Positions 4,953-61,921 of a stretch of 64,000 bases of DNA are shown piece by piece. Source of the DNA: Patescibacteria group bacterium (GTDB lineage Bacteria > Patescibacteriota > Microgenomatia > UBA10105 > UBA927); assembly GCA_038062895.1 (NCBI GenBank), contig JBBTWJ010000005.1:3715-67714 (forward strand), in the 5' to 3' direction. How positions within the stretch are numbered: position 1 is the stretch's first letter; every line of letters starts with the position of its first letter. A program made the translations under genes and the position numbers. A model generated the notes under the pieces. That model was not told the origin of the DNA and did no database searches. It saw nothing but the letters and a program-made list of their open reading frames with translations.

Positions 4953-4979
4953 ACAGTCAAAAAAGTCACTCCCCGCTCG

Positions 4980-48992: not shown

Positions 48993-49373
48993 ATGCGGAG
49001 ACTATTTTGGATCATTCTGGCAATCTCTGTGTTTGTGTCTACGGGAACCGCGTATGCCGCGGATCCGTTCTGTCCCGGCAATAAACAGGGGATAAACACT
49101 GCGATCGGCTGCATTAACGCCGACGGCACCGGGGGTATCGTAAAAGAAATATTCCGATTGGGAACGGGTATTGCCGGAGGCATCGCGTTTCTTCTCATTC
49201 TTTTCGGTGGGTTTCAGATCATGACCAGCACCGGCAATCCCGAAAAGCTCAACGAGGGTAAAGAACTTATCGCCTCGGCCATCACCGGACTCCTCATGAT
49301 TCTTTTTTCCGTATTTCTCCTCAAGTTTATCGGTGTAGACTTACTCTGTATTCCCGGTTTCGGTTCGTGCTAA
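48993..49373 (+). CDS. Pilin-like small membrane protein (TrbC/VirB2-like, CPR 'T4SS pilin' type), paralog 1
   Basis: Signal peptide, then two hydrophobic helices flanking GGFQIMTSTGNPEKLNEGKELI. Confidence 0.7.
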   Translation: MRRLFWIILAISVFVSTGTAYAADPFCPGNKQGINTAIGCINADGTGGIVKEIFRLGTGIAGGIAFLLILFGGFQIMTSTGNPEKLNEGKELIASAITGLLMILFSVFLLKFIGVDLLCIPGFGSC

Positions 49374-49379
49374 ATCACT

Positions 49380-49721
49380 ATGGAATCCGTATTTGCTCAA
49401 AAACTTGAAATACCAGGCAATGGCCCAACTAAAGAACTTATCGAGGGGCCAACGGGGTTAACTATGAACTCCATCGGAGATATTATCAATAAAGCAATCC
49501 CCTACATCTTCTCGTTTGCCGGACTCGCTCTTCTTCTCATGCTCATCATGGCGGGATTTGACCTCCTCACAAGCGCCGGGGACGCAAAAAAACTGGAAAT
49601 GGGCAAGCAGCGCTTGACCTATGCGGTTGTCGGCATCATCCTGATCATCGTGGCCTATTGGCTGGTACAGATAGCCGGCATCATCTTCGGGGTTGCAGAG
49701 ATACAATCAGTGTTTAAATGA
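49380..49721 (+). CDS. Pilin-like small membrane protein, paralog 2
   Basis: AGFDLLTSAGDAKKLEMGKQRLTYAVVGIILIIVAYWLVQI motif. Confidence 0.7.
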   Translation: MESVFAQKLEIPGNGPTKELIEGPTGLTMNSIGDIINKAIPYIFSFAGLALLLMLIMAGFDLLTSAGDAKKLEMGKQRLTYAVVGIILIIVAYWLVQIAGIIFGVAEIQSVFK

Positions 49722-49789
49722 ACCAGATCCTTCGACTCTCCCTCGACATCGCTCGGGATCGCTCAGGATGATCGCGATTACTTTCGCGA

Positions 49790-50503
49790 TCATTTTCCAA
49801 ACCGTCGTTTTCGTTTTTGAAACTCTTCAATCGCCTCATCCAGTTTTTCCGGTGTAAATTCCGGCATAAACCACGTCGGAAAATACAGCTCGCTATACTC
49901 CGACTGCCACGGGAGAAATCCACTTAACCGCTGTTCTCCGCCGGTGCGGATGATAAGCTCGGGATCAGGAATACCATGCGTGTCTAAATACTGATGAAAA
50001 TCTTGTTCGGTCAACTTTAAACTTTTAACTTTAAACTTTAAACTTTCGCGCCATCTGTTGATGGCGCGTAGTATCTCATCTCTCCCACCGTAGTTGAGCG
50101 CAAAGACCGCCGTGATGGTCGTATTATTTTTCGTTTGGTGAGCGACGTCACTCAAGGATTTCTGGATATCAGCCGGAAACTTAGCCAGATCACCGATTGC
50201 GCGGACGCGGACGCCTTTCTCATGAAGACGGGCCCATCGGTTCTTGATCACATGACGGAATATCGTCATGATTCCGCGCACCTCTGGCGCTGCGCGGTTC
50301 CAATTCTCTGTAGAAAATGCCCAAAACGTCATATATTTGACTCCCCGCTTTGCGGCGTGTTCGATGAGGGGCTCAAGCACATCATTGGCCACCCGCCTGT
50401 GTCCTTCGAGAATCGGAAGTCCCCGTTCCTTTGCCCACCGGCGGTTGCCATCCATGATGACGGCGATATGGGTTGGAATATTCGTTGTATTTCCCATAAT
50501 CAT
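49790..50503 (-). CDS. uppS: Isoprenyl transferase (undecaprenyl diphosphate synthase, UppS)
   Basis: HIAVIMDGNRRWA...FSTENW...ELIIRTGGEQRLSGFLPWQ. Contains an in-frame heptamer repeat. Confidence 0.9.
   Translation of the reverse strand: MIMGNTTNIPTHIAVIMDGNRRWAKERGLPILEGHRRVANDVLEPLIEHAAKRGVKYMTFWAFSTENWNRAAPEVRGIMTIFRHVIKNRWARLHEKGVRVRAIGDLAKFPADIQKSLSDVAHQTKNNTTITAVFALNYGGRDEILRAINRWRESLKFKVKSLKLTEQDFHQYLDTHGIPDPELIIRTGGEQRLSGFLPWQSEYSELYFPTWFMPEFTPEKLDEAIEEFQKRKRRFGK
50013..50047. repeat. Heptanucleotide tandem repeat (aacttt[atc] x5) inside uppS CDS
   Basis: aactttaaacttttaactttaaactttaaactttc, translated as ..ESLKFKVKSLKLTE.. Confidence 0.85.
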
Positions 50504-50560
50504 TTTTTGTGTTTCCTACTCTTAATATATTTCTACACTTCTACATAGAAGTGTAGAATA

Positions 50561-51538
50561 TTAAAATAAATGATCTTTAATAAGATGCGCTCCGCGGGAG
50601 GGTTTGTTGACAATGACATCACGAATTTCGTCAATATCAGTTAATTTTGCTTTCAATGCGTCAACAGTGTTTGAATGACAAATAAGGTGAACATCCTGTC
50701 CGGTGTTAATAGTAAAATAGACTTCTATCCCTTCATCTCGCCACTTCTTAATAAGTCTTATAACCTGGAGCGTCCCCGGTGTCCAATAGATGAGTGGTGG
50801 TCTTGAAGTGAGCATCACCGCGTGCATCTCAAGAGCCTCTGCCTCAATAAGTTCTCCAAGGAGAGAAAAACGTTTTTCTGCCAACAGTTTTTTTGCCTGT
50901 ATTAATTTTTTTTTCATCCCTGCCAGACGCACCGGAAAAAAGGGGCTTGATGCAACGCGCGCCATTCCTTGAGTCGTGGGTACGGATTTTTTTCCTTCAT
51001 TAACGACTACCACGACATCAACGATATCCCACCAATCCGGCGGATAAAGGGAAACGCCGTAGGATGTATCACTCGTGTTGCCGTCGATCCACTCCACAAA
51101 CCCATCCGGAATAGATCTGCACGCAGAGCCGGAGCCCTGACGCGCGAGTATCGACAATTCTTTTTCATCAAGTTCTAACCCGGCTGCAGCAACTGCGGCA
51201 ACTGTTAGCGCCGCAAATCCAGAAGCAGAAGAGGATAATCCCGTACCAGAAGGAAAATTATTGACGGTGACGACTTTGGCGTAATCGTCCATACGCGCAA
51301 CCTTGCGAATCCGATCTAAATGCGTAATCGCTCTACTTCCATCAATTGCTTCCTGGATACCGTTAATCTCTATAACGTCCTCCTTATGCATTGGGCTGAA
51401 TTCCACGGTCGTTGTTGTCATCAAACCAGAAAGGTTCATTGATAAACTACCGTTTTCCGGCAAGCGTAATGCGTCATTTTTCTTTCCCCAATACTTGATA
51501 AATGCAATATTTGAGGGAGCAACAGCTGTAGCTTTCAT
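50561..51538 (-). CDS. mvaD: Diphosphomevalonate decarboxylase
   Basis: PSNIAFIKYWGK...GTGLSSSASGFAAL...SGSACRS. Start at the Met MKATAV, with a 4-nt ATGA overlap with the upstream gene. Confidence 0.9.
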   Translation of the reverse strand: MKATAVAPSNIAFIKYWGKKNDALRLPENGSLSMNLSGLMTTTTVEFSPMHKEDVIEINGIQEAIDGSRAITHLDRIRKVARMDDYAKVVTVNNFPSGTGLSSSASGFAALTVAAVAAAGLELDEKELSILARQGSGSACRSIPDGFVEWIDGNTSDTSYGVSLYPPDWWDIVDVVVVVNEGKKSVPTTQGMARVASSPFFPVRLAGMKKKLIQAKKLLAEKRFSLLGELIEAEALEMHAVMLTSRPPLIYWTPGTLQVIRLIKKWRDEGIEVYFTINTGQDVHLICHSNTVDALKAKLTDIDEIRDVIVNKPSRGAHLIKDHLF

Positions 51539-52983
51539 GATAAAATTCCTGCTTTTTTGAGCGAAACTTCTGCACATCTCGTAAGCACAATTTCCTTCGT
51601 TGCCACTTTAAATGGTATCTCCCGGGGAGAAAAAAATTCCACACGATCTACTTCCTCATGATTTATCCGAAACGGGCCATTGGATACCCCTCTATATAGC
51701 GCTGCCATTTCCGACTCCTGGTTATCTTGTACGACAAACCTGGAAAGCGGGGTAACTGGCATATCGACTCCCAGTTCTTCCTGAAGCTCGCGGTGAAGCG
51801 TCTCTTCGTACTCCTGACCTTTCCGCACATGGCCCGCGCAGGATATACCCCAAAGTCCCGCGCCCGTATCTTTAGAACTGCTCCTTTTTTGGAGAAGCAC
51901 ATTCCCTTTTTTATCAAAAATAACGGCTCCTACCGTGCGATGGATAAGTGACTTGTCATGATGGCAGTCATAGCGGCTGCGAAACCCAAGCACTCTGTCA
52001 TCTTTATCGACGACGATAAATTCTTCTTTCTGGTCATCGGTTGTCTCGATGCGGACACCTTGAGCGTTTGGGTGGACATCAATCGCTTCACCACCCGCAT
52101 CCGCTATCGCTTTTTGTATGGCTTCTCTCTTATCGCTCGGCCCAAGGGCGATCATACAATCTCCGCCCCCTGCACCGGAGAGCTTGGCGCCCCAAGCTCC
52201 TGCCTTTTTTGCCGCACTAATCATCGCTTCTAACTTTTCGCTGCTCACTCCCAAATCCCGCAGGTACTCATGATTAAAATCCATGAGTCTCCCCACCCGT
52301 TCCCAATCCCCTTCCAACATCCGCATTTTCGCTTCCTCAACCAATTTGGTTATCGCCTGAAAAATCCGCTCCACTTTCTCCGGATTCTTTTCCTTCTTTT
52401 CGGCCACTTGTTTTATAAGCATCGTCGTATCCGCTTTCACTCCCGTGTATCCAACAATGAGTGGCATTTCTGATACAGTTTGATCGTTTGATTCCCGGTA
52501 TTGAGCGTGGATTTCTTCAATAACTTTGCCGCCGGCAATGAAATAGAGGGTTCCCCCATACACGGCCGCTGCCACATCAAATCCGCTCCCCATCCCCTGC
52601 ACGGCTAACACCGTTTTATATGAAAGGTCAAAAAGCTCGCGCGACGTCACTTCTTTTTTGAAAAGCAAGGCAAGCGCCTTTACTACCCCCACCGTTACCG
52701 AGGCAGATGATCCGAAACCATATTTGCCCGAAAAGTTACTTTGTGTTTTGATCCGGAACCCAACCGATGGAATACCCCACCCTTTTTGTGCCTGCCGGAC
52801 CGCTTCATCCACAAAGCGGGTATCACCCGCTTGGGGCGCATCTACCACGACCTTACTTTCCTCAATTTTTTCCACTCCAACCGTAAGCCGCTCATCAATC
52901 GCGGTAACCAAAGAAGGATAGCCGTACACGACGGCGTGTTCACCCATTACCATTAATTTCCCTGGCGCGGAAATTAAAACCAT
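51535..52983 (-). CDS. Fusion protein: GHMP kinase (mevalonate/phosphomevalonate kinase-like) + isopentenyl-diphosphate isomerase type 1 (Nudix)
   Basis: N-terminus APGKLMVMGEHAVVYG..GFGSSAS (GHMP). The C-terminal ~160 aa has HRTVGAVIFDKKGNVLLQKRSSSKDTGAGLWGISCAGH...ELQEELGV, the IDI-1 pattern. Confidence 0.85.
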   Translation of the reverse strand: MVLISAPGKLMVMGEHAVVYGYPSLVTAIDERLTVGVEKIEESKVVVDAPQAGDTRFVDEAVRQAQKGWGIPSVGFRIKTQSNFSGKYGFGSSASVTVGVVKALALLFKKEVTSRELFDLSYKTVLAVQGMGSGFDVAAAVYGGTLYFIAGGKVIEEIHAQYRESNDQTVSEMPLIVGYTGVKADTTMLIKQVAEKKEKNPEKVERIFQAITKLVEEAKMRMLEGDWERVGRLMDFNHEYLRDLGVSSEKLEAMISAAKKAGAWGAKLSGAGGGDCMIALGPSDKREAIQKAIADAGGEAIDVHPNAQGVRIETTDDQKEEFIVVDKDDRVLGFRSRYDCHHDKSLIHRTVGAVIFDKKGNVLLQKRSSSKDTGAGLWGISCAGHVRKGQEYEETLHRELQEELGVDMPVTPLSRFVVQDNQESEMAALYRGVSNGPFRINHEEVDRVEFFSPREIPFKVATKEIVLTRCAEVSLKKAGILS

Positions 52984-53059
52984 AAATTGTTATTGGTTAG
53001 TTAGTTAATTAGTTACTTAGCTATAATTTATCTAACTAACAAAGTAACGAAATAACGAA
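52984..53059. repeat. Intergenic inverted-repeat spacer (module gttagttag/gttacttag/taactaac)
   Basis: ttggttagttagttaattagttacttagctataatttatctaactaacaaagtaacgaaataacgaactaac. Confidence 0.7.
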
Positions 53060-54031
53060 CTAACTTTTCTTCTCCAACCGTATCCCTTCTTCTCCTAATC
53101 TGATCGGTTGAATGGAAAATCCATATGGCTTGCTTATGGCAGATATCTTATCCGGGTCTTGGGTATAGCATAATAAAAATCCCACACCCTCCGCTTTTCC
53201 GCCGCCACCGAGGATCTTCGCTGCACCTCCGGCCTTTTCAATTTTCCTGATGAGCGGAATGACTTTCCTGCTTACCACTTCCATTCCCTCCAAGCTTCGC
53301 TGTCCGGCGGTCATTGCATCCATCAATTCTTTCTCATCCCCCTCCTTGATCGCCACCGCGATATTTCGAGTTTGTATTTCATTCTCATCAAATAATCTAT
53401 TCATTCTTGACGCCTGACGCCTGACGCCTGACGCTACCAAAGAAATCATCTCCCCTGTCGTCTCCTTCGGTTTCCCGGTATTGATGAGAAAAAAATGATT
53501 GAGACTTTCGGGTATCTTGAATGGCAACTGCCAGATGCTTTTGAGAAATTCAAGTTCCTTCCGAAACCAAATAAGTCCGCCCATGGTCACCGTCGTATTA
53601 TCTCCGCCGGAAGGATTCCCGTGCATTTTTTTCTCGACTTCATAGGCAATCTGGTTAATCGCAGCCGGATTCCAAACTTTTTTAAGATAATAGGTTAGGG
53701 CTCCGACGACTCCAACGGCTACTGCGGCCGATGAGCCCAAATGATAACCGGCAGGAATATCGGAAACAACCGTAATCTTCATCGGTGGAAGATTTGCAAG
53801 TTTATACTCCCGCTTGACCACCTCAACTACATGACGGATATAGTCGGACGGCTCACTGGAGTCGATAAGTATTTTTTCTCTGGATCCCCGCGTTCGCGGG
53901 GATGACAAAGAAAGCGACTCGACAGTCACACGCAAACGGAGGTTGATGGCGGCAAGAAGCGCGGGCTTACCATAAACAACCGCGTGTTCGCCCATTAAAT
54001 GCACTTTACCGGGAACGCTTACTGTAACCAT
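53060..54031 (-). CDS. mvk: Mevalonate kinase (GHMP kinase)
   Basis: VPGKVHLMGEHAVVYGKPALLAAI...GYHLGSSAAVAVG...KILGGGG. Contains a translated palindromic element and a heptamer repeat. Confidence 0.85.
   Translation of the reverse strand: MVTVSVPGKVHLMGEHAVVYGKPALLAAINLRLRVTVESLSLSSPRTRGSREKILIDSSEPSDYIRHVVEVVKREYKLANLPPMKITVVSDIPAGYHLGSSAAVAVGVVGALTYYLKKVWNPAAINQIAYEVEKKMHGNPSGGDNTTVTMGGLIWFRKELEFLKSIWQLPFKIPESLNHFFLINTGKPKETTGEMISLVASGVRRQASRMNRLFDENEIQTRNIAVAIKEGDEKELMDAMTAGQRSLEGMEVVSRKVIPLIRKIEKAGGAAKILGGGGKAEGVGFLLCYTQDPDKISAISKPYGFSIQPIRLGEEGIRLEKKS
53399..53428. repeat. Heptanucleotide tandem repeat ([ct]tgacgc x4) inside mvk CDS
   Basis: ttgacgcctgacgcctgacgcctgacgc, translated as ASGVRRQASR. 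Confidence 0.8.
53878..53908. repeat. Palindromic element family A' inserted in-frame in mvk (translated LSSPRTRGSRE)
   Basis: ctctggatccccgcgttcgcggggatgacaa, with arms GGATCCCCGCG/CGCGGGGATC. Confidence 0.8.
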
Positions 54032-54116
54032 AAATAGTTAGTTAGCAACGCTAGTTACTTCGTTACTTAGAAAAAATTTCTACCAAGTAACTAAATAACG
54101 CGCGTTGCTCGTGTTG
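54032..54116. repeat. Intergenic inverted-repeat spacer; left arm is the reverse complement of a segment in 54432..54508
   Basis: agttagcaacgctagttacttcgttacttag ... ctaagtaac...gttgctaac. Confidence 0.7.
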
Positions 54117-54431
54117 CTAACACGGTTTCACTTTTATCCCATACGGAATCACGCCCTCATTGTTTGGCTTAATGGTGCGGCGGACAACAGTAATAACCTT
54201 CATTCCCATAAGCTTTTCCTTCCCAGCCTGTCCGCCGGCTGGCGGATCTACAAGTTGTGCGGTTATTCTTTCTCCCCCACTAAGCTCGACAAGGACCACG
54301 GGATACGGAGCCTGATCGGAAAAATCAGCCGGAGGAACACGCACCATGGTCCACGAGATTATTTTCCCGATTTTCCCGAGCATTTTACCAACGTTCTTTT
54401 GATTTCTCCAAAGCTTGACCGGACTAAGCAT
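54117..54431 (-). CDS. DUF35 OB-fold/Zn-ribbon protein (thiolase/HMG-CoA synthase scaffold, archaeal type)
   Basis: 104 aa (...WTMVRVPPADFSDQAPYPVVLVELSGGERITAQLVD...) sitting between the thiolase and kinase genes. Confidence 0.7.
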   Translation of the reverse strand: MLSPVKLWRNQKNVGKMLGKIGKIISWTMVRVPPADFSDQAPYPVVLVELSGGERITAQLVDPPAGGQAGKEKLMGMKVITVVRRTIKPNNEGVIPYGIKVKPC

Positions 54432-54508
54432 AATTGTTACTTGGTTAGTTGGTTACTTAGTTATTAGTAAAAAATTTTTCTAAGTAACGAAGTAACTAGC
54501 GTTGCTAA
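54432..54508. repeat. Intergenic inverted-repeat spacer
   Basis: ttacttggttagttggttacttagttattag...ctaagtaacgaagtaactagcgttgctaactaac. Confidence 0.7.
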
Positions 54509-55663
54509 CTAACTTTTAAGTATATGAGCCACCGCGGTCGCTCCGCTTCCTCCGACGTTATGGGCAAGTCCCACGCGCGCGCCTTTCACTTGTCTGGCTC
54601 CTGCCACCCCCCGAAGTTGCGTCACCAATTCAACAACCTGCTTGACGCCCGTCGCGCCAATCGGATGACCACAGCCTTTCAGTCCCCCAGACGGATTGAC
54701 GACTAATTTTTTCGCTTTCCCCAGCGTCACTTCTCCCCGTGATATCGCTCGAGCTGCCATTCCCTTGCGATAAAATCCTATATCTTCCAGAGCTAAAATT
54801 TCTGCAATCGTAAAACAATCATGCACCTCGGCGATATCAATATCGCGAGGCCCGACGCCGGCAATCGCATAAGCGCGACGCGCAGCTTCTTGAGAAGCCG
54901 CAAGCTCGGTCAAGCTCTCTCTTTGGGCAAGTCCCAATGTGTCTGTTGCCACTGCGCTTGCGACAATTTCAATCTCCTTTTCCCTTTTTCCGTTTACCTT
55001 TTTCCTTGAAAGTATGAGTGCTGCTGCTCCGTCTGAAATCGGTGAGCAATCTAATAACTTCAGGGGGTCGGCGACAGCGTGGCTTCTTAGAACCTGCTCG
55101 ATGGTGAGAAGACTTCGAAATTGTGCGTTAGGGTTTAAACTCGCATGAAAATGATTTTTTACGGCAACTGCCGCCAGATCTTCTTGGGTCGTCCCATACT
55201 CCTGCATATGAATACGGGCAAGAATGGCGTAGAGCCCCGGAAACGTACAACCAGATGAACGCTCTTGAGCAGTCCCCGCGCCCATGAGCGCTGTCGCCAC
55301 ATCTTCTGGCTTGTGATCCGTCATCTTTTCGACCCCAAGTACGGCAACCGTCTCATACTGACCGGAGGCGATGGCGTTAAATGCGTTGTGAATAGCCAGG
55401 CCTCCCGACGCGCACGCGCCTTCAACCTTAAAAGCAGCAGCGTGAGTAAATCCCAGTTCCTCTGCAAAAAATGCCCCCAAATGCTCCTGTCCACCCAACA
55501 TGCCGGAGAGCATATTGCCTACGAATAACGCCTGAATGTCCCGCGGCTTCATAGCAGCATCTTTCAGCGCGCCGTCCATGGCCTCATGGGCGAGCGTCCT
55601 GGGAGAGACGCTCCAAAGCTCACCGAATTTAGTTGTAGAAGCACCGATGATAGATACATTCAT
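54509..55663 (-). CDS. Acetyl-CoA C-acetyltransferase (archaeal-type thiolase)
   Basis: MNVSIIGASTTKFGEL...ACASGGLAI.., a thiolase fold without the bacterial PhaA-type N-terminus. Confidence 0.9.
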   Translation of the reverse strand: MNVSIIGASTTKFGELWSVSPRTLAHEAMDGALKDAAMKPRDIQALFVGNMLSGMLGGQEHLGAFFAEELGFTHAAAFKVEGACASGGLAIHNAFNAIASGQYETVAVLGVEKMTDHKPEDVATALMGAGTAQERSSGCTFPGLYAILARIHMQEYGTTQEDLAAVAVKNHFHASLNPNAQFRSLLTIEQVLRSHAVADPLKLLDCSPISDGAAALILSRKKVNGKREKEIEIVASAVATDTLGLAQRESLTELAASQEAARRAYAIAGVGPRDIDIAEVHDCFTIAEILALEDIGFYRKGMAARAISRGEVTLGKAKKLVVNPSGGLKGCGHPIGATGVKQVVELVTQLRGVAGARQVKGARVGLAHNVGGSGATAVAHILKS

Positions 55664-55758
55664 AGTTGCTTGGTTAGTTGGTTACTTGGTTACTTAGAAA
55701 GAACTAAGTTGCTAAGTAACAGGTGTTGCTAACTAACAATCTAGCGAATTACCATTCG
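55664..55758. repeat. Intergenic inverted-repeat spacer
   Basis: ttgcttggttagttggttacttggttacttag...ctaagttgctaagtaacaggtgttgctaactaac, followed by a second palindrome ctagcgaattaccattcgctag. Confidence 0.7.
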
Positions 55759-56862
55759 CTAGATTTTGTGTGTCTGTTTCAAATATTGCACGTAATCAAT
55801 GTACGTTTTTTTCGCTATTTGCTGCTGCACTAAACTTTGACTTTTGACTTTTGACTTTTGACTTTTGACGAGCGCTTCTGTCGTCTCCCACACAAACCCG
55901 TCGCTGCCGGCTCCCGATCCGTAGGACACCATAAAAATCTTCTCTCCGGGTTTGGCGATATCCAATACCGCGGCAAGCCCCATCATGGTAGAAGCTGAAT
56001 AGGGATTTCCAATGGTGTCCACGACAAGTGAGGGCAGTATCTGATCAGGCGTAAACCCTAAGCGCTTCGCTGCGTCCCGGGGAAATCTCCCGTTGGGCAT
56101 ATGAAAAACACAATAGTCAATATCAGAAGGTTTACACTGAACCTTTTCAAAAAGGCGACGTGCGGCCCCTATAACATGCGCAAAATATGCCGGCTCTCCG
56201 GTGAACCTCCCTGCATGAGATGGATAGGCCACACCATCACGTCGCCAAAAGTCCGGCGTGTCCGAAGAATAGGAAGTGTAGGCAAGAAGTTTTGCAACGA
56301 TAGGTTTAGTTGTTCCTTGGGGATCAATTTTCTTGCGGCCGCTTTTGTTTTGATCCTCATCTCCTTTTCCCATTAAAAACGCGGCTCCGGCGGCGGCGGA
56401 CGTGTATTCCAACACGTCGTGGGGTTTGCTTTGGGCCGTATCAGCACCCACGGCCATACCATAGCGCATATGACCGGATCCCACGAGCCCTGCGATTGCC
56501 TGCATCCCCGCGGTCCCCGCTTTACAGGCAAACTCAAAATCTGCCGCCAGATAATTATTTCCTACGCCAAGAAGTTCTCCGACAATCGTGGACGTTGGAT
56601 TAACCGCATACGGATGACTTTCTGATCCCACAAATAGAGCTTCTATAGACTGGGGACTTAGCCCCTCTACTCCGCTCAAGGCGCTTCGGGCGGCTTCAAG
56701 GGCTATCGTCACTGCGTCCTCGTCTGGAGCCTGTACGGATTTTTCCGTAACGAGAAGCGATGAAGTGACGTCCTGTCCGTCCTTTTTCCACGCAGCAGCG
56801 ATATCGCTTAGACGGATGCGGTACTGCGGAATATAGGTGCCGTATGAAACAATTCCTACCAT
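55759..56862 (-). CDS. mvaS: Hydroxymethylglutaryl-CoA synthase (archaeal type)
   Basis: MVGIVSYGTYIPQYRI...AGTAGMQA (catalytic Cys region). A heptamer repeat lies near the C-terminus. Confidence 0.9.
   Translation of the reverse strand: MVGIVSYGTYIPQYRIRLSDIAAAWKKDGQDVTSSLLVTEKSVQAPDEDAVTIALEAARSALSGVEGLSPQSIEALFVGSESHPYAVNPTSTIVGELLGVGNNYLAADFEFACKAGTAGMQAIAGLVGSGHMRYGMAVGADTAQSKPHDVLEYTSAAAGAAFLMGKGDEDQNKSGRKKIDPQGTTKPIVAKLLAYTSYSSDTPDFWRRDGVAYPSHAGRFTGEPAYFAHVIGAARRLFEKVQCKPSDIDYCVFHMPNGRFPRDAAKRLGFTPDQILPSLVVDTIGNPYSASTMMGLAAVLDIAKPGEKIFMVSYGSGAGSDGFVWETTEALVKSQKSKVKSQSLVQQQIAKKTYIDYVQYLKQTHKI
55834..55868. repeat. Heptanucleotide tandem repeat ([ct]tttgac x5) inside HMG-CoA synthase CDS
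   Basis: ctttgacttttgacttttgacttttgacttttgac, translated as KSQKSKVKSQS. Confidence 0.85.
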
Positions 56863-56983
56863 ATATTTAAATCCAAAATCCTAATTTCTAAATTCTAAAC
56901 AATATCAAAATTCAAATATCCAATGCTCTAAACTGTTTTGTATTTTGAATTTTGGTCATTTGAATTTATTTTGAATTTAGGAT

Positions 56984-58147
56984 TTAGTGCTTAGAGCTTC
57001 CGCGCGCAAGACGTTGATGCGCGCGGGCTAAGGTTCCCTCCGACAACGACGCAAGAAGTGAAATTTCACCAGCGAGTACGGCGGCTGCAATAATCTCCGC
57101 AAGCCGTTGAGCGTTTTTCCCATTATCCCCACCGGCAACGCCAAGAATGTTCAAGGCTTCTTTTTGTGTCCCAAGCCCTGTCCCGCCACCAACCGTCCCG
57201 ACCATAAGATCCGGGAGACATACATTGATATATACATCGTGACCATCAACTACTTCCATCGTCGTTATCCCCACGCTACACTCTCCCACGTGTCCGAGGT
57301 CTTGCCCTGTCGCCAAAAACATCGCCGCGATAACGTTGGCGTATTGGGCGTTAAATCCCATGGATCCGCTTATCGCGCTTCCGATCATACATTTAGCGAG
57401 CCATACTTCATAAACCTTTTGTGCCGTTGTTTTAAGAACATTTTTAAGAACACTCGCAGGAATAGTCACTTCTGCCCACACCTTGATCCCGCGATTTTCT
57501 ATGAAGTTAAGCCACGCGGATTTTTTGTCTATGTCAAAATTCCCGGCAAGTGAAAGGCATTTCACCCCGGTTTCCTCTTCGATATATGAGGCAAGAGCGT
57601 CGCTTGCTATTGTTGCCATGTTCATGCCCATAGCATCCTCGGTGTCAAACGTAAATCGCACAAACCGATATCTCCCAACCCCACGGGTCAACAACTTCTT
57701 TAACGTTATATGACGTGATGTTTTGGCGGCTACCTCCTGTAGATCATTCAAGTGCTCATTCAAAAATTTATATAAACGGTCGCTCTGTGCAAGATCTTTC
57801 ACTTTAAATACCGGACCCCGTGTCGCTCCCACCCGATGACTATCAACCGTCGACCCACCGCTTTCGGTGATCGCTTTACACCCCCGGCTCACGGAAGCGA
57901 CGAGAGCGCCTTCGGTCGTGGCGAGGGGAATATACCCACTGAAAACTTTAAACTTTAAACTTTTAACTTTGAGGGGGCCGGCGATACCTAGTGGGACTTG
58001 TGCCGCTCCGACCATGTTTTCGCAGTTTTTCGTTGATGCAACGGACTGGTCCAGAGTAAAGCTGCCGATGTTGATTAAATCAACCTTCAACTGTTTCTCC
58101 AGGGCGCTTCTGCGGTCCGTAACTGTTTTGTAATCACGAAGATTCAT
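56984..58147 (-). CDS. mvaA: HMG-CoA reductase
   Basis: ENMVGAAQVPLGIAGPL...ATTEGALVAS...DAMGMNM...GTVGGGT. Start at the Met MNLRDYK (ATGA overlap with the upstream Yip1 gene). Confidence 0.9.
   Translation of the reverse strand: MNLRDYKTVTDRRSALEKQLKVDLINIGSFTLDQSVASTKNCENMVGAAQVPLGIAGPLKVKSLKFKVFSGYIPLATTEGALVASVSRGCKAITESGGSTVDSHRVGATRGPVFKVKDLAQSDRLYKFLNEHLNDLQEVAAKTSRHITLKKLLTRGVGRYRFVRFTFDTEDAMGMNMATIASDALASYIEEETGVKCLSLAGNFDIDKKSAWLNFIENRGIKVWAEVTIPASVLKNVLKTTAQKVYEVWLAKCMIGSAISGSMGFNAQYANVIAAMFLATGQDLGHVGECSVGITTMEVVDGHDVYINVCLPDLMVGTVGGGTGLGTQKEALNILGVAGGDNGKNAQRLAEIIAAAVLAGEISLLASLSEGTLARAHQRLARGSSKH
57943..57970. repeat. Heptanucleotide tandem repeat (aacttt[atg] x4) inside HMG-CoA reductase CDS
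   Basis: aactttaaactttaaacttttaactttg, translated as LKVKSLKFKV between GPL and ATTEG. Confidence 0.85.
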
Positions 58148-58923
58148 AAAAACGGTACTCGAAATATTCCCAACCGGTACATCCCCCAACTCCAAACTCC
58201 CATAACCGGACCGACTACACCAACAACTGCCAAAATCCGCCAAAGATCAAGCTTGAGTCCGAACCGGAGCGTAAGATACCCAAGCGTCAGCTTCCAAAAA
58301 AAGAGTGTCGTGCTCACGACCAGAAATAACACGCTAAACCCCGTGCCCGCAATACTCGCGGTCCTTGGTGGGGGCAGCAATATATAGAGAAGCGAGGTCA
58401 TAAAAAACCAACAAACCGTGGGAAGCATCGTATATCCCCAACCAACCGCAATTCCTTTCATTGTCCCCTTCCCGCCGAACTGCTTCCCCACAAGCCAAAC
58501 CACACAGACAACAAGCATATAGGTCACCAGTGCGGCGACGGCCAGCACGACCGCGTGCTTAGAGAGAAGAAAGGGTCGAAACGCTGCGACTTTGACCAGG
58601 CTTGCAAGAGAAAAGTAGACGATGGCCAACGCTGCGACATACACAAGCTCCCACGCGCCTCCCTTGCCTACAACCTTGCGATACGTTTCGTATGGACGGA
58701 CTACGAGACCAATGGTGGTACGACCAAATGCGATACCGGACATGATGAGCTGATCAAGCATAGTATGAAAAAGTAGTGGTATGAAGTTAGTCGAAGGATA
58801 AGGGCTAAAACCCGCGGTTAAAATCCTCTTTGGAGGAGAGTAACAAGAAGGGTGATGGTTGAACCGATCAGGAAGTACAGGATAAGCACACATGCCGCAG
58901 CCGACAAAACAAAATACGGCCAT
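58144..58923 (-). CDS. Yip1-family membrane protein
   Basis: 5 TM with a Yip1-like topology. The start may be the Met at 58761. Confidence 0.6.
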   Translation of the reverse strand: MAVFCFVGCGMCAYPVLPDRFNHHPSCYSPPKRILTAGFSPYPSTNFIPLLFHTMLDQLIMSGIAFGRTTIGLVVRPYETYRKVVGKGGAWELVYVAALAIVYFSLASLVKVAAFRPFLLSKHAVVLAVAALVTYMLVVCVVWLVGKQFGGKGTMKGIAVGWGYTMLPTVCWFFMTSLLYILLPPPRTASIAGTGFSVLFLVVSTTLFFWKLTLGYLTLRFGLKLDLWRILAVVGVVGPVMGVWSWGMYRLGIFRVPFL

Positions 58924-59048
58924 GGCATAACTTTCAGCCTGCGGATAAACGATTTATAGACAGGCGTGAACGGTCCCAACGTCTGTGGGGGGAGGTCTAC
59001 AACCTGCTCCCAACGGGTAAGAAATTTTTTGTAGGTGACGTCTTTCAT
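58818..59048 (-). CDS. Small membrane protein (possible anti-sigma factor)
   Basis: 76 aa with a single TM, immediately downstream of the ECF sigma factor. Confidence 0.4.
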   Translation of the reverse strand: MKDVTYKKFLTRWEQVVDLPPQTLGPFTPVYKSFIRRLKVMPWPYFVLSAAACVLILYFLIGSTITLLVTLLQRGF

Positions 59049-59126
59049 GATTTTGACGTCATTCTGGAAGCCGAAGGCTGATAGAATCTCCAGGGGATCC
59101 TATCGCTTCGCTCCAGGATGACATTT

Positions 59127-59666
59127 TTAAATAGAAAGGAATGCTTCTACGAACGCTTTTCTCGCTCGAAACAGTTGCGACTCTGCGCTTTTAAAGCTTA
59201 TGGTAAGTTTTTCTGCAATTTCTGAAACGCTAAATCCATCTGCGTATTTGAGAACGAGAACACTCTTATACATCGGCAGAAGCCGACCCAAGGCTCTATA
59301 AATTTTCTCCCGAAGCAGGCTCGCATCAAGCTCTTCCTCCGGTCCTAAAAGCGGAGCTACAAATGATTCAAGTTGCGGCACCGCAGAAAACACGACGTGA
59401 CGGATTTTCTTTCTCCTATACCAGTCAATCACCTTGTGGCTTGCGATCGCGTAAAGAAACGTCTTGAGCTTGGACGCTCCGGTAAAATCACGGATGGCCT
59501 CAAGAAACCCAAAAAGCGCATCTTGCAACACCTCTTCGGCATCATCGGGGTTGGCAATCTTCGCGCGGATAAAGAGACGAAGCTTCGGGGTATACATCCG
59601 GTAAAATACCGAAAGTGCCTGGCGATCGTGCGCGAGGATTTGAGTAATGAGTTCCTGGTCATTCAT
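59127..59666 (-). CDS. ECF-type RNA polymerase sigma factor (sigma-70 family)
   Basis: Region 2 (FYRMYTPKLRLFIRAKI...EEVLQDALFGFLEA) and a region-4 HTH (YADGFSVSEIAEKLTISFKSAESQLFRARKAF). Confidence 0.85.
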   Translation of the reverse strand: MNDQELITQILAHDRQALSVFYRMYTPKLRLFIRAKIANPDDAEEVLQDALFGFLEAIRDFTGASKLKTFLYAIASHKVIDWYRRKKIRHVVFSAVPQLESFVAPLLGPEEELDASLLREKIYRALGRLLPMYKSVLVLKYADGFSVSEIAEKLTISFKSAESQLFRARKAFVEAFLSI

Positions 59667-59697
59667 GAATTGAATGCAAAACGACTAAAAGACTATA

Positions 59698-60648
59698 TCA
59701 TGCTTGGCGGTTGAGCGCAAAACTTGCAAAGTCAGTAAGAAGCGCTCCCATGCCGACAGACGCATGAATCGCTTGGGTCGCCTGAGCCGTCTGCTTTCCA
59801 AGCTTCTTGGCCTGTGTGCGGAAAGCGTCCTCACCAACTTCACCATCAAGGAAATCATCGCGCAGTTGATATGCCTCTCCCACCGCCAGGCCGTACGGTA
59901 CAAACGATTCGAGCGTTTTCTCATCCGACCCGGCGATGCTCGCTCCGATCTGAAGAGGCCGGACGACGCTGTACCAAGCAGTTTTATAACGGTTAATCGT
60001 TGCCCTGTCGGCGCTGGGCAATCCAGCGGAGGCCAACACATCCAGGCTCTGACCCAAAATCACCTCTTGTTTCATTTTCTGATAATTTACCCACACGCTC
60101 GACCAATTCCGGGAATCCTTTGGATTCCCGGAATTAACGGCCCGGTTCATCAGTTCATCCGCCCACGCCAATGCGAGGTCGCCGGCGAGGATAGCCATGC
60201 TCTCGCCGAAACGCGAACTCCCCATCCGATTCCGGGAATCCAAAGGATTCCCGGAATCTAGCGCAACCTGCTTAAACTTTTCATGAACAGTGGGACTGCC
60301 GCGGCGCATCGCATCTTCGTCAATAATATCGTCATGGATGAGAGCAAACGACTGAAATAGTTCAATTCCCATCATGGCAGAGAGCACGTTGTCATCCCCG
60401 ACCCGATCGGGGATCCAGGTATTGCGCTGGATTCCCGCGTGCGCGGGAATGACAGACTGGTGCCCCAGCCATACCAGAAACGCCCGGGTCCGCTTGCCGC
60501 CGCGGGAGGTGAGATCGGCTATTTGGTCAACGAGTTGTATGGTCTGCGGATGGATGTTTTTCGCTTCACTGTGTTTGGTCGTAAAAAAGTGTTGAAGTTC
60601 ATGATCGACGTTCTTCTTGACATCATGAAGGGCTGTAGTGAGATCCAT
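59698..60648 (-). CDS. Polyprenyl diphosphate synthase (FPP/GGPP synthase family) carrying three translated palindromic insertions
   Basis: FARM motif LIHDDIIDEDAMRRG and SARM motif GEAYQLRDDFLD. Start at the Met MDLTTALHD; the longer ORF extension is encoded by an intergenic repeat copy. Confidence 0.9.
   Translation of the reverse strand: MDLTTALHDVKKNVDHELQHFFTTKHSEAKNIHPQTIQLVDQIADLTSRGGKRTRAFLVWLGHQSVIPAHAGIQRNTWIPDRVGDDNVLSAMMGIELFQSFALIHDDIIDEDAMRRGSPTVHEKFKQVALDSGNPLDSRNRMGSSRFGESMAILAGDLALAWADELMNRAVNSGNPKDSRNWSSVWVNYQKMKQEVILGQSLDVLASAGLPSADRATINRYKTAWYSVVRPLQIGASIAGSDEKTLESFVPYGLAVGEAYQLRDDFLDGEVGEDAFRTQAKKLGKQTAQATQAIHASVGMGALLTDFASFALNRQA
60105..60142. repeat. Palindromic element family B (14-bp arms) inside polyprenyl synthase CDS, translated NSGNPKDSRNW
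   Basis: aattccgggaatcc-ttt-ggattcccggaatt. Confidence 0.85.
60229..60262. repeat. Palindromic element family B, second copy, inside polyprenyl synthase CDS, translated DSGNPLDSRNR
   Basis: gattccgggaatcc-aaa-ggattcccggaatc. Confidence 0.85.
60427..60454. repeat. Palindromic element family A inside polyprenyl synthase CDS, translated SVIPAHAGIQ
   Basis: ctggattcccgcgtgcgcgggaatgaca. Confidence 0.85.
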
Positions 60649-60674
60649 GGGAGAAGTATACCAAATTTCATAAG

Positions 60675-60709
60675 GCCACCCCTTGCAAACGCCAAGGGGT
60701 GGCCTTGAA
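60675..60709. repeat. Perfect hairpin (copy 2), identical to 42772..42806
   Basis: aaggccaccccttgcaaacgccaaggggtggcctt. Confidence 0.75.
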
Positions 60710-60724
60710 AAACACATTTGAACT

Positions 60725-60752
60725 CTGGATTCCCGCCGTCGCGGGAATGACA
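60725..60752. repeat. Palindromic element family A, intergenic copy
   Basis: ctggattcccgccgtcgcgggaatgaca. Confidence 0.8.
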
Positions 60753-60804
60753 ATTCTTCGCATATTGTTGACAGTCGCCTTCAGCTTTCCGTACACTTAT
60801 ACTC

Positions 60805-61113
60805 ATGGAGCGTATCTTTGCCGTCGACCTTCAAAATACATCACCAACGTTTAGCGCGTATCCCACGTTCGGGGCATTAGTCACCATCATCGTGCGCAAC
60901 TCATTCGTGCTGGCTGGCATCATAAGCTTCCTGCTTTTGGTTTTCGGAGGATTTAGCGTTATAATGGCAGCAGGATCTGGCGACACGAAGGAGCTTGAGA
61001 AAGGTCAAAAGACGATCACGTATGCGATCCTGGGACTTATTCTCGTCGTCACGTCGTACTGGATCGTCCAGATTATCGAAAAAGTGTCGGGTGTCAAACT
61101 TATCACACCATAA
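60805..61113 (+). CDS. Pilin-like small membrane protein, paralog 3
   Basis: FGGFSVIMAAGSGDTKELEKGQKTITYAILGLILVVTSYWIVQII. Confidence 0.7.
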   Translation: MERIFAVDLQNTSPTFSAYPTFGALVTIIVRNSFVLAGIISFLLLVFGGFSVIMAAGSGDTKELEKGQKTITYAILGLILVVTSYWIVQIIEKVSGVKLITP

Positions 61114-61114
61114 T

Positions 61115-61492: not shown

Positions 61493-61494
61493 CT

Positions 61495-61884: not shown

Positions 61885-61893
61885 CAATTTACT

Positions 61894-61921
61894 CTGGATT
61901 CCCGCCTGCGCGGGAATGACA
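61894..61921. repeat. Palindromic element family A, copy overlapping the start region of the next pilin gene
   Basis: ctggattcccgcctgcgcgggaatgaca. Confidence 0.8.

Follow-up and report, generated by a model that had tools for sequence, protein, structure and literature searches.

Known mevalonate operons in CPR bacteria

The mevalonate pathway of CPR bacteria has been described previously (Hoshino & Gaucher, 2018). In most Microgenomates, an archaeal-type thiolase and HMG-CoA synthase (HMGCS), a class I HMG-CoA reductase (HMGR), and linkage to a cis-prenyltransferase are the published norm (PMC6107057). The preliminary description of the present locus had singled out its archaeal-type thiolase, DUF35, and HMGCS genes as unusual in a bacterial context. 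They come, however, from a CPR genome, where the pathway is the norm, and are therefore no anomaly of this bacterium. The archaeal-looking first enzymes are real but lineage-wide and published in 2018; only some details of the operon are new.

Genomic setting and content of the operon

The window analysed here is a 64 kb stretch of a 224,654-bp contig from Hainich groundwater, belonging to an uncultured Patescibacteria (CPR) bacterium. Its HMGCS shares 100 % identity with a MAG-derived NCBI protein that carries the annotation HMG-CoA synthase (Patescibacteria group bacterium), and comparison of this protein places the nearest named relatives of the source in Candidatus Gottesmanbacteria (72–81 %). 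Twelve collinear ORFs on the minus strand, to which all gene coordinates given below refer, were each identified by profile search (Pfam and NCBIfam). All twelve align with their references over the whole length, and none is truncated or frameshifted. ATGA start/stop overlaps join the Yip1 and HMGR genes (58147-58144) and the decarboxylase and kinase-Nudix fusion genes (51538-51535). The genes, their order, both overlaps, and a complete mevalonate route, with a gene for every step, are thus as first described. The sigma-70 housekeeping genes said to adjoin the operon are present in the window, as is a tmRNA, but rpoD (21892-23016) and dnaG (23081-24862) are about 27 kb distant. The region as a whole is best explained, with good confidence, as one operon of a Gottesmanbacteria-like CPR bacterium covering all steps from acetyl-CoA to undecaprenyl diphosphate, from which the peptidoglycan lipid carrier is derived.

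The order ECF sigma factor, 76-aa protein, Yip1, HMGR, HMGCS, thiolase, DUF35, mevalonate kinase, putative phosphomevalonate kinase, decarboxylase, UppS is kept in a complete chromosome (L004) and in related loci L006, L084-L088, and L093, and the same order is seen in L094 and L097 as far as the contigs extend.

The archaeal-type front end

The HMGCS (55759-56862, 367 aa) exceeds the cut-offs of TIGR00748 (422 bits against 353) and NF003274 (472 bits against 244), whereas the bacterial mvaS model TIGR01835 gives only 99 bits. Among solved structures it is closest to 6ESQ chain I (357 bits), with which the Glu/Cys/His/Asn motifs align. Likewise, the acetoacetyl-CoA thiolase (54509-55663, 384 aa) scores 478 bits with NF004720 (cut-off 420) and is closest to 6ESQ chain A (313 bits), with the CAS, HDCF, and GHP motifs kept in the alignment. 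The best solved match of the DUF35-family protein (54117-54431, 104 aa), for which PF01796 is the sole profile matched, is 6ESQ chain E. Together with the HMGCS-thiolase-DUF35 gene order, which is the same in about 70 archaeal loci, these matches support the archaeal type first assigned to the three proteins. The HMGR (56984-58147, 387 aa) is of class I, the NADPH type, with 389 bits for PF00368, 399 bits for TIGR00533, just under its cut-off of 442, and 49 bits for the class II model; its best solved structure is 6HR7 (336 bits). HMGCS and HMGR both score far higher with the archaeal or class I models than with the Gram-positive mvaS or class II models, which speaks against a typical Gram-positive mvaS/mvaA placement.

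The DUF35 protein had been taken for an OB-fold/Zn-ribbon protein, of which only the OB-fold part stands. Residues 5-19 align with residues 3-17 of 6ESQ chain E, and residues 19-103 with residues 49-127, so that the ribbon (residues of about 18-48) has no counterpart here. The protein contains one Cys and no CxxC, and the best 120 homologues (median length 99 aa) all lack CxxC. By contrast, archaeal and FCB-group bacterial DUF35 proteins are about 130 aa long with two CxxC, where those of this operon are about 100 aa with none. An AlphaFold model (mean pLDDT 74) matches 6ESQ_E best, followed by MucC, PhlB, ChsH2, and BbsA. Loss of the ribbon was not found described in the literature searched and is apparently a new detail. 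The protein is presumed to be the scaffold of a thiolase/HMGCS complex; the two enzymes, tethered by the ribbon-less OB-fold, would produce HMG-CoA much as the archaeal channeling complex does, and the HMGR would convert this to mevalonate.

Bacterial trios of this architecture are also known as Friedel-Crafts acyltransferases, in which the HMGCS E-C-H-N tetrad and the thiolase HDxF are reported lost (PMC12960953), and PhlA, PhlC, PhlB, and MucC are among the structure and fold matches of the present proteins. A repurposed PhlABC/MucABC-type acyltransferase that makes no HMG-CoA is nevertheless hardly credible here. The tetrad and HDxF are both present, the archaeal complex is matched much more strongly (HMGCS, 357 bits against 180; thiolase, 313 bits against 99), and in every relative the trio stands between HMGR and mevalonate kinase.

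Origin of the front end

The preliminary description left it open whether the pathway was horizontally derived or ancient. Many archaea have an HMGCS and a thiolase with about 50 % identity to the present ones and also share the gene order, as might be expected of a recent transfer from an archaeon to this bacterium, or of a chimeric or mis-binned archaeal contig. That such transfers or mis-binning do occur is shown by L054, a locus labelled Dojkabacteria (CPR), which nests inside the Methanosarcina clade in the tree. The other evidence makes this origin very improbable for the present operon. In the tree, the CPR loci form a single clade separate from every archaeon sampled and at equal distance from each archaeal group. 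The same protein is encoded by six independent contigs, which derive from several samples, and many relatives have the operon with genes 70–80 % identical to these, some of them on closed or near-closed chromosomes of about 1 Mb. The GC content of the operon is unremarkable and typical of the window, the flanks carry the CPR hallmarks of T4SS-pilin arrays and DUF5657, and UppS and the genes for the later steps are of bacterial type. Because of the unremarkable GC content, the separate CPR clade, and the recurrence of the operon in relatives, the archaeal-type front end belongs to the ancestral make-up of this bacterial lineage and is not a recent acquisition.

From mevalonate to isopentenyl diphosphate

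The first of two GHMP kinases (53060-54031, 323 aa) is a mevalonate kinase (MK), with 177 bits for TIGR00549 against a cut-off of 163. Among solved structures it matches mevalonate kinases only, and its motif HGNPSGGDN is the counterpart of HGNPSGVDN in rat MK. The second forms the N-terminal part (52039-52983) of a fusion protein (51535-52983) with a Nudix domain. This fused kinase exceeds the cut-off of the MK model with 207 bits and has archaeal MKs as its best solved matches (136 bits), and in the NCBIfam profile search it passes no canonical phosphomevalonate kinase (PMK) model. However, its PMK-model score is about twice that of the other operon kinase (104 bits against 54), and it alone of the two matches PMK structures. 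It carries the motifs VQGMGSGFDVAAAVYGG and SGAGGGDCMIAL, to be compared with SGAGGGDCGIAL in the PMK 3GON and with VQGNGSCGDIASCMYGG and SGSGGGDCGIAF in Lin0012; GGGD is present in 96 of its 150 best representatives. It is therefore probable, on an MK/PMK assignment that rests on few motifs, that the fused kinase is an MK-like paralogue with PMK function. PMK-type motifs on a Nudix-fused kinase were not encountered in the literature searched.

The GHMP-family decarboxylase (50561-51538, 325 aa) scores 261 bits with the mevalonate (di)phosphate decarboxylase model TIGR01240 (cut-off 171). Its best solved matches are 6N0Z and 6N0X (302 and 297 bits), the latter identified as the phosphomevalonate decarboxylase of Anaerolinea thermophila (PMC9254496), against 223 bits for the true diphosphomevalonate decarboxylase of Enterococcus (MDD). 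This ranking would suit the haloarchaeal/Chloroflexi route, in which MK, phosphomevalonate decarboxylase, and isopentenyl phosphate kinase (IPK) act in turn, leaving the second MK-like kinase with another role. So would the failure of the operon to pass a canonical PMK model, and the presence of IPK in CPR bacteria, often adjoining such genes (PMC6107057), including the close relative L090. The two reference enzymes are, however, similarly close in overall identity (44 % against 41 %). At the two positions that differ between 6N0Z, an engineered variant, and 6N0X, the window enzyme has Lys and Met, as do 6N0Z and Enterococcus MDD; the second of these specificity positions varies among orthologues (M/H/Q), but at the position where the Anaerolinea enzyme has Asn and 6N0Z has Lys, the eight CPR decarboxylases all carry Lys or Arg. 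In addition, a second kinase with the PMK-type motifs GSxxD[VIL]A and GGGDC is conserved in the operon, and no IPK was found in the operon or in the larger window ORFs scanned (64 kb of an approximately 1 Mb genome). The haloarchaeal/Chloroflexi route is therefore unlikely. The decarboxylase is probably specific for diphosphomevalonate, and MK, the MK-derived PMK, and this enzyme would lead to isopentenyl diphosphate (IPP) by the classical route.

The C-terminal Nudix domain of the fusion (51535-52038; PF00293, 72 bits) resembles type 1 IPP/DMAPP isomerase (IDI). The IDI models score highest but below their cut-offs (86.5 against 127 and 63.4 against 105.8), with the YfcD model nearly as good (76 bits), and the CPR orthologues do not conserve the position of the canonical IDI-1 cysteine. 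Neither this sub-cut-off score nor the missing cysteine was found described in the literature searched. Thus, of the GHMP kinase-IDI fusion first described, a kinase-Nudix fusion is clear, and the Nudix domain is presumed, from its sequence, to be the isomerase that would supply DMAPP.

Prenyl diphosphate synthases

The trans-polyprenyl diphosphate synthase (59698-60648, PF00348, 316 aa from a likely ATG start at 60648) has DDxxD motifs in its translation, and its matches to NCBIfam prenyl-synthase models are all under the equivalog cut-offs. It is probably of the short-chain FPP/GGPP synthase type. Its gene lies directly upstream of the ECF sigma factor gene in L084, L088-L093, L096, and L098, and is absent from this position in L004 and L085-L087. 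At the other end of the operon, the cis-prenyltransferase UppS (49790-50503), an undecaprenyl diphosphate synthase, scores 229 bits with TIGR00055 (cut-off 110) and 248 bits with PF01255, with the full profile covered. The trans-synthase would provide a short allylic primer, which UppS would elongate to C55.

A conserved ECF sigma factor module

Usually at the 5′ end of the operon are three genes not found described, as a module, in the literature searched. The first encodes an ECF-type sigma-70 family sigma factor (59127-59666, 179 aa; TIGR02937, 84 bits against a cut-off of 43; Sigma70_r2 and r4_2). The second encodes a 76-aa single-pass membrane protein (58818-59048) with one hydrophobic segment (residues 38-74), and the third a Yip1-family polytopic membrane protein (58144-58761, 205 aa as called; PF04893, 34 bits against 28.6) with about five hydrophobic segments by hydropathy. 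Across 12 loci, conservation in the 76-aa protein is strong in a cytoplasmic N-terminal stretch of about 40 aa (TYxKFVxRWEEVxDLPPQTLGP) and at the C-terminus (LQRGF). Its 72 homologue clusters are nearly all exactly 76 aa long, the named ones being Gottesmanbacteria or Patescibacteria hypothetical proteins. The profile search gave it no Pfam match and no recognisable anti-sigma domain. Of the ECF sigma factor and putative anti-sigma partner first reported, the module is truly conserved with the operon and the 76-aa protein stays a candidate anti-sigma factor.

The module is seen only with the operon. ECF orthologues (50–91 % identity) always precede the 76-aa protein, Yip1, and HMGR, all 11 close orthologues found from the sigma side share this context, and the next most similar ECF sigma factors found have at most 34 % identity. 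The position of Yip1 is conserved in all related loci reaching that far.

An extended -10 promoter-like element, TGATATAGT (59692-59700, minus strand, by consensus match only), overlaps the prenyl synthase stop codon and precedes the ECF start codon by 34 nt. Of 17 related loci, 12 carry a TGnTAnAnT element 18-51 nt ahead of the start of the ECF gene, and loci without an upstream prenyl synthase have an additional -35-like TTGAGg at 17-bp spacing. This conserved element is of the housekeeping sigma-70 type and not ECF-type, which would fit a module that is a mere conserved neighbour and acts not on isoprenoid supply but on other genes, such as those of the flanking pilin-like arrays or of the cell wall. 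The divergently oriented T4SS-pilin-like arrays, which always flank the operon in the window and related loci, the absence of the module from the more distant CPR operon L007, and the lack of a detectable anti-sigma domain agree with such a role, which carries appreciable but minor weight. Against it, start/stop overlaps tie the module to the pathway, between Yip1 and HMGR in the window and between the sigma factor and the 76-aa protein in relatives (overlapping or abutting in L084, L086, L088, L090, and L093), and every close sigma orthologue is in the operon context. In L090, where an IPK and a Nudix protein replace the mevalonate genes, the module is kept with the prenyl synthase and UppS. 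There is also a precedent in Bacillus subtilis, in which SigM-YhdL-YhdK senses undecaprenyl phosphate (PMC11081497). It is plausible that the ECF module controls the supply of lipid carrier, and it may, as first suggested, place isoprenoid supply under envelope-stress control. The operon would be transcribed from the sigma-70-type promoter ahead of the ECF gene, with the lineage-specific module coupling transcription to membrane or lipid-carrier state.

Mevalonate operon and its genomic context

The operon adds one more example to a known type of CPR Microgenomates locus and is already annotated in a public MAG, and the additions made here are modest: a DUF35 protein without its zinc ribbon, a phosphomevalonate kinase (PMK)-like kinase fused to an IDI-like Nudix domain that lacks the canonical Cys, and an ECF sigma/76-aa/Yip1 module found exclusively with such operons. 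Twelve collinear ORFs on the minus strand lie within 49790-60753, in the order polyprenyl synthase, ECF sigma factor, 76-aa protein, Yip1, class I HMG-CoA reductase (HMGR), HMG-CoA synthase (HMGCS), thiolase, DUF35 OB-fold protein, GHMP kinase, GHMP kinase-Nudix fusion, GHMP decarboxylase and UppS. The ORF list of the window and profile searches confirm the twelve genes and the order given in the preliminary description. The two ATGA overlaps that it had reported are both present in the sequence and place the true starts of HMGR and the decarboxylase at 58147 and 51538, with which the public gene calls on the source contig agree. All of the enzymes align over their full length to references, and pseudogenisation was ruled out, as every gene is full length. 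In a consensus scan of 49300-61200, internal promoters and terminators showed no excess over shuffled sequence and no convincing internal terminator was found, which is weakly suggestive of a single transcription unit.

An identical HMGCS protein is encoded on six Hainich groundwater metagenome contigs, the longest of 224,654 bp, of which the window represents approximately bases 3715-67714; an assembly chimera was ruled out because six independent contigs carry the gene. The protein is also identical to one from an NCBI MAG labelled Patescibacteria group bacterium, and its closest named relatives are from Candidatus Gottesmanbacteria (72-81% identity). Archaea made up most of the matches when the genome collection was scanned with HMGCS by a peptide-pattern method, and a single genome among the matches carried a Gottesmanbacteria label. 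The flanks of the operon contain arrays of PF18895 T4SS-pilin-like genes, as well as DUF5657 and SpoIID, and together with the HMGCS relatives these identify the bacterial context as CPR of the Microgenomates group. Also within the window are a tmRNA, seven tRNAs, rpoD and dnaG.

The small pilin-like genes form divergently oriented arrays on either side of the operon (48993-49721 and 60805-63177), one array having two genes and the other six or seven, an arrangement that is the same in the complete Gottesmanbacteria chromosome (L004), in a locus labelled uncultured Gammaproteobacteria (L006) and in the related loci L084-L087. About 37 kb from the operon, the gene at 11853-12608 on the minus strand encodes a membrane protein that matches PF04240 ('carotenoid biosynthesis protein', 74 bits), possibly a further isoprenoid consumer in an organism for which carotenoid synthesis would not be expected.

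Archaeal-type HMGCS and thiolase

HMGCS scores 422 bits with TIGR00748 (cut-off 353) and 472 bits with NF003274 (cut-off 244), as against 99 bits with the bacterial mvaS model. Its best solved match is chain I of 6ESQ (357 bits), the HMGCS of a solved archaeal thiolase/HMGCS/DUF35 complex, with GSESHPY, FACKAGT, CVFHMPNG and GNPYS conserved, and in this alignment the Glu, Cys, His and Asn catalytic residues of the archaeal type are kept. The thiolase exceeds the cut-off of the archaeal (SCP-x-like) model NF004720 (478 bits against 420) and is below that of the species-specific model NF053570 (446 against 600); its best solved match is 6ESQ_A (313 bits), in which CAS, HDCF and GHP are aligned at the CxS, HDxF and GHx motifs. 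For HMGCS, thiolase and DUF35 the best solved matches are the three chains of this single entry, and the three genes are adjacent, in the same order and on the same strand as in approximately 70 archaeal loci. The archaeal type proposed earlier for the trio is therefore borne out by models, structural matches, motifs and gene order. HMGR scores 399 bits with the class I model and 49 bits with that of class II, and from the HMGCS and HMGR scores these enzymes do not belong with the Gram-positive mvaS and mvaA, the placement named beforehand as counting against an archaeal-type pathway. Tripartite complexes of this kind are reportedly also present in some bacteria.

The trio resembles the 6ESQ/6ET9 complex of Methanothermococcus thermolithotrophicus (Vögeli et al., 2018, as cited in PMC12960953) in its catalytic and HDxF motifs and in gene order, and differs from it in a DUF35 protein without the rubredoxin-like zinc ribbon of approximately 30 residues and in an HMGCS insertion of approximately 17 residues. 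The same three-protein architecture and DUF35 fold are found in the PhlABC and MucABC acyltransferases (5M3K, 9VBT). These have lost the E-C-H-N tetrad of HMGCS and the HDxF motif of thiolase (PMC12960953) and have kept the zinc ribbon, whereas in the window the motifs are kept and the ribbon is lost; a PhlABC-type acyltransferase was ruled out, since the catalytic motifs of both HMGCS and thiolase are intact. The operons of Gram-positive cocci (mvaS, mvaA, mvaK1, mvaD, mvaK2, fni) are also bacterial and encode the classical route ending in IPP, the route favoured for the window. Unlike these, the window has an archaeal-type HMGCS (422 bits, against 99 with the mvaS model), a class I rather than class II HMGR (399 against 49 bits), a thiolase with a DUF35 partner, a probable PMK that is mevalonate kinase (MK)-like, and a Nudix-type protein in place of the FMN-type isomerase.

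The HMGCS insertion relative to 6ESQ_I (DEDQNKSGRKKIDPQGTTKP, residues ~166-186, window 56280-56360) is absent from most relatives (343-349 aa), a few Gottesmanbacteria homologues being similarly long (360-367 aa). HMGCS and thiolase are separated by a spacer of 95 nt, which is much shorter in relatives. In it, a perfect inverted repeat with a 12-bp stem (AATCTAGCGAAT...ATTCGCTAGATT) is present at 55738-55765 and overlaps the stop codon of HMGCS.

DUF35 without a zinc ribbon

The DUF35 protein of the window is 104 aa in length, with one Cys and no CxxC. Alignment to its best solved match, 6ESQ_E (35.5 bits), pairs residues 5-19 with the N-terminal helix (chain 3-17) and residues 19-103 with the OB fold (chain 49-127); chain residues ~18-48 have no counterpart, and thus the rubredoxin-like ribbon, of approximately 30 residues and four Cys, is missing. 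DUF35 is present in all five CPR-type loci and is likewise ribbonless (100-106 aa); the DUF35 partners of Archaea, Cloacimonadota and Zixibacteria are of about 130 aa and have two CxxC. Among the 120 best database homologues (median length 99 aa), of which the named ones are from Gottesmanbacteria and Woesebacteria, none has a CxxC. A frameshift hiding the zinc ribbon was ruled out, as helix and OB fold are in frame and the same organization is seen in the 120 homologues. In the AlphaFold model (mean pLDDT 74) a helix is followed by five strands, with 6ESQ_E the best match and the DUF35 subunits of MucABC, PhlABC, ChsH2, Shy and BbsAB the next fold matches.

As judged from these homologues, the ribbonless DUF35 is a lineage-wide minimal form. 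It is a candidate scaffold that would still bridge thiolase and HMGCS, the role of the zinc ribbon having been deduced from secondary sources and sequences. A natural zinc-free DUF35 scaffold of about 100 aa would define a minimal channeling complex and be of interest for pathway engineering. In the archaeal type of complex the proteins are physically associated, and acetoacetyl-CoA is channeled through a fused CoA-binding site. A literature search found no paper naming DUF35 together with Patescibacteria. Outside the CPR, in an Ignavibacteria MAG (L082), the DUF35 that follows thiolase is full length (146 aa) and has lost both CxxC; zinc binding seems to have been lost there independently.

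Kinases, decarboxylase and Nudix domain

Both kinases pass the mevalonate kinase model TIGR00549 (cut-off 163), the fused kinase (fusion protein at 51535-52983) with 207 bits and the free-standing kinase (53060-54031) with 177 bits. The latter has the motif HGNPSGGDN, compared with HGNPSGVDN in rat MK and HGKPSGIDT in Staphylococcus aureus MK, and on the basis of model score and the HGNPSGxDN motif shared with the rat enzyme, its earlier labelling as mevalonate kinase is considered correct with moderate confidence. Neither kinase reaches the cut-off of a PMK model, the fused kinase scoring 104 bits against 166 with TIGR01220 and 97 against 500 with NF040957, and archaeal MKs are overall the nearest relatives of the fused kinase (136 bits). 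It scores about twice as high as the free-standing kinase with the PMK models, and is the only one of the two to match PMK structures. Its motifs, VQGMGSGFDVAAAVYGG and SGAGGGDCMIAL, have counterparts in the PMK of Streptococcus pneumoniae (NGSMGDLACI and SGAGGGDCGIAL) and in Listeria Lin0012 (VQGNGSCGDIASCMYGG and SGSGGGDCGIAF), GSxxD[VIL]A and SGAGGGDC being common to the fused kinase and the PMKs 3GON and 3K17. Within its best 150 representative homologues, GGGD is found in 96 and GSxxD[VIL]A in 88. These motifs point, with moderate confidence, to a PMK-Nudix protein. The presence of PMK motifs in an MK-like kinase is consistent with the idea of an origin of PMK by duplication of MK (PMC9254496).

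The fusion is present in L004, L085 and L087, is not present in L084 and L086, and accounts for about 8 of the 150 top representative clusters. Larger kinase-Nudix fusions occur in other lineages (P0338 and P0351, 928-952 aa; P0334, 504 aa), and the C-terminal half of the ~940-aa proteins consists of an MK-type kinase, with a GGGGG motif, and the Nudix domain. The mevalonate kinase gene of L085 (12555-13443 of a 995-kb contig) is in two pieces, of 70 and 104 aa, either as a pseudogene or through a long-read frameshift error.

The decarboxylase exceeds the cut-off of TIGR01240 (261 bits against 171) and is below that of the phosphomevalonate decarboxylase model NF040704 (172 against 475). Its best solved relatives are 6N0Z (302 bits) and 6N0X (297 bits), with the Enterococcus diphosphomevalonate decarboxylase (MDD) at 223 bits. 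6N0X is the phosphomevalonate decarboxylase of Anaerolinea thermophila, in which mutagenesis switched the specificity to the diphosphate (PMC9254496); this enzyme is the highest-scoring solved relative, with 44% identity. At two aligned positions, the N of YWGNRD and the H of TQGHAL in 6N0X are replaced by K and M in 6N0Z, and at these the window enzyme has Lys and Met, like Enterococcus MDD and unlike 6N0X (Asn, His), from which it also differs in being accompanied by a PMK-like kinase. In CPR orthologues the first position is K or R in all eight and the second is M, H or Q. With the meaning of the 6N0Z substitutions taken from secondary sources and sequences, the Lys and Met residues favour a diphosphate substrate. 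No MEP or IPK family was found among the approximately 50 ORFs scanned within the 64-kb window. Because of the Lys and Met residues, the PMK-like kinase and the lack of an IPK among the ORFs scanned, the classical (diphosphomevalonate) route is clearly favoured.

The preliminary description had called the fused protein a GHMP kinase-IDI fusion. The fusion of kinase and Nudix domain stands. The domain is below the cut-offs of the IDI models that are its best matches (NF002995, 86.5 against 127; TIGR02150, 63.4 against 105.8) and lacks the canonical Cys. The YfcD model scores nearly as high. In Escherichia coli IDI, the Cys of the NxxC(C/G)xHP motif is catalytic; the Nudix alignment included a sequence taken to be that of the E. 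coli enzyme. Canonical IDI fragments from two archaeal loci (L028 and L014) pass the IDI cut-offs and carry NTCCSHP. At this position the window has ISCAGH, with its Cys one position off, and CPR orthologues have ISAAGH, NAVGGH, TSVGGH or VSASGH. The His and ExE positions are conserved, and the complete Nudix box, RELxEELG, is kept in the CPR proteins. Scores below the IDI cut-offs and the lack of a conserved canonical Cys are common to the Nudix domains of the window (51535-52038), L004, L085 and L087, the more distant CPR operon L007, and L090, an operon lacking the HMGR-to-decarboxylase genes. What suggests an isomerase is the context of the domain. The low scores, the lack of the conserved Cys and the intact Nudix box make the IDI-I annotation of CPR proteins questionable, and its routine use in CPR genomes may hide a mechanistically different enzyme. 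A literature search on IDI catalytic residues found nothing usable.

ECF sigma factor module

The sigma factor is of the ECF type (TIGR02937, 84 bits against 43), with Sigma70_r2 and r4_2 domains and no region 3. A search from HMGCS showed that L004, L006 and the long contigs L084-L087 all keep the genes for the ECF sigma factor (179 aa), the 76-aa protein, Yip1, HMGR and so on to UppS in this order. A metagenome scan with the sigma factor identified 11 orthologues (59-91% identity), with the same neighbours wherever the contig was long enough, and the next-best sigma factors were no more than 34% identical. The more distant L007 is without the module. In the 76-aa protein, a conserved N-terminal part on the cytoplasmic side precedes a single transmembrane helix at the C-terminal end. 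The start of its gene often overlaps or abuts the stop codon of the sigma gene. The family of the 76-aa protein comprises 72 clusters, nearly all of exactly 76 aa, with named members only in Gottesmanbacteria/Patescibacteria; a Pfam search found no domain in it, including none of anti-sigma type.

A TGnTAnAnT element is found 18-51 nt before the sigma start codon in 12 of 17 loci, and in the window the promoter-like element is TGATATAGT (59700-59692). In loci without the prenyl synthase, TTGAGg is present 17 bp ahead of TGnTAnAnT, and from the match of this sequence and spacing to consensus a promoter of housekeeping type is predicted.

In L090 (Ga0082335_1017918, 1-5641), where the ECF sigma factor is 89% identical, the prenyl synthase, module and UppS are kept, and in place of the genes from HMGR to decarboxylase are those for an unknown 361-aa protein, an isopentenyl phosphate kinase (IPK; 197 bits, cut-off 120), a degenerate relative of MK and a Nudix protein that is not fused. 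The locus resembles a salvage-type operon variant, and its gene content argues that the module travels with polyprenyl synthesis and not with the mevalonate enzymes as such.

In the SigM-YhdL-YhdK system of Bacillus subtilis, the sigma factor is held by two membrane proteins, one single-pass and one polytopic, which respond to undecaprenyl phosphate in its free form (PMC11081497). Likewise, in the window an ECF sigma gene is followed by genes for a single-pass and then a polytopic membrane protein, and the supply of undecaprenyl phosphate is a theme common to both. The SigM-subfamily model, at 79 bits, is among the better sigma matches and is below its cut-off of 148. Unlike in B. subtilis, the module is physically part of the synthesis operon, and neither the 76-aa protein nor Yip1 showed detectable homology to YhdL or YhdK. 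The likeness is one of organization, and SigM-YhdL-YhdK is the nearest functional precedent. Envelope-linked control by the module, as suggested in the preliminary description, seems reasonable and is strengthened by the conservation found here. A literature search for ECF factors with an anti-sigma protein and Yip1 found nothing usable. The module, tied exclusively to the operon, is a testable candidate regulator in organisms about whose regulation very little is known.

The genomes of CPR bacteria are tiny, and it is generally held that these organisms cannot make most of their own lipids. That approximately 11 kb is spent on a full route from acetyl-CoA to lipid carrier suggests that the product cannot be scavenged. 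A tentative proposal, more doubtful as a whole than probable, joins the three features in Gottesmanbacteria-like CPR. The ECF sigma, 76-aa protein and Yip1 would be a dedicated sensor of polyprenyl phosphate status, hard-wired to the only isoprenoid supply operon as a minimal counterpart of B. subtilis SigM-YhdLK; the front end of the operon would run on the minimal zinc-free DUF35 scaffold; and as the last step, the cysteine-less Nudix would act on IPP, isomerising or otherwise controlling it by a mechanism unlike that of canonical type 1 IDI.

Origin and relation to other CPR clusters

HMGCS and thiolase sequences of 34 loci were concatenated for a neighbour-joining tree. In it, all CPR-type loci, among them the window and the Gottesmanbacteria chromosome, form one clade outside all of the sampled archaea, and Cloacimonadota, Zixibacteria and Ignavibacteria form a separate clade among the archaea. 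Identity to archaea of many phyla is uniformly 47-52%, and the GC content of the operon, 0.47-0.49, matches the window. These observations agree with the report that CPR mevalonate genes fall in CPR-specific clades close to archaea (Hoshino & Gaucher, 2018; PMC6107057). There, the CPR cluster is typically linked to a cis-prenyltransferase gene and MEP genes are sparse in the CPR (PMC6107057). The window matches the description of the Microgenomates cluster: a CPR genome, archaeal-type thiolase (AACT), HMGCS (HMGS), class I HMGR, two MK-family kinases (MVK, PMVK), a decarboxylase and an IDI-I-like protein, with the same cis-prenyltransferase linkage and placement in a CPR clade of its own near archaea. 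In a term search of that paper, neither DUF35 nor a sigma factor nor a fusion of kinase and Nudix domain was found, and the window goes beyond the cluster in its ribbonless DUF35, the linked trans-prenyl synthase and the ECF module at the head of the operon. The preliminary description was thus right in substance to report an archaeal-type pathway in a bacterium, although this is a known CPR trait (PMC6107057) rather than a peculiarity of the organism. Arguments about how the last common ancestor made isoprenoids have already drawn on the pathway's mix of archaeal-type and bacterial-type enzymes (PMC6107057), and to these the window adds nothing new.

Several related loci have CPR-type genes under other labels. 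L006, labelled uncultured Gammaproteobacteria, has a CPR-type operon and CPR pilin arrays, and L005 (labelled Methanoperedens) and L007 (labelled Gammaproteobacteria) have CPR-type genes that include the ribbonless DUF35. In L054, labelled Dojkabacteria, HMGCS and thiolase nest within the Methanosarcina clade. These four labels look doubtful, the loci probably being mis-binned contigs or, in the case of L054, the result of transfer.
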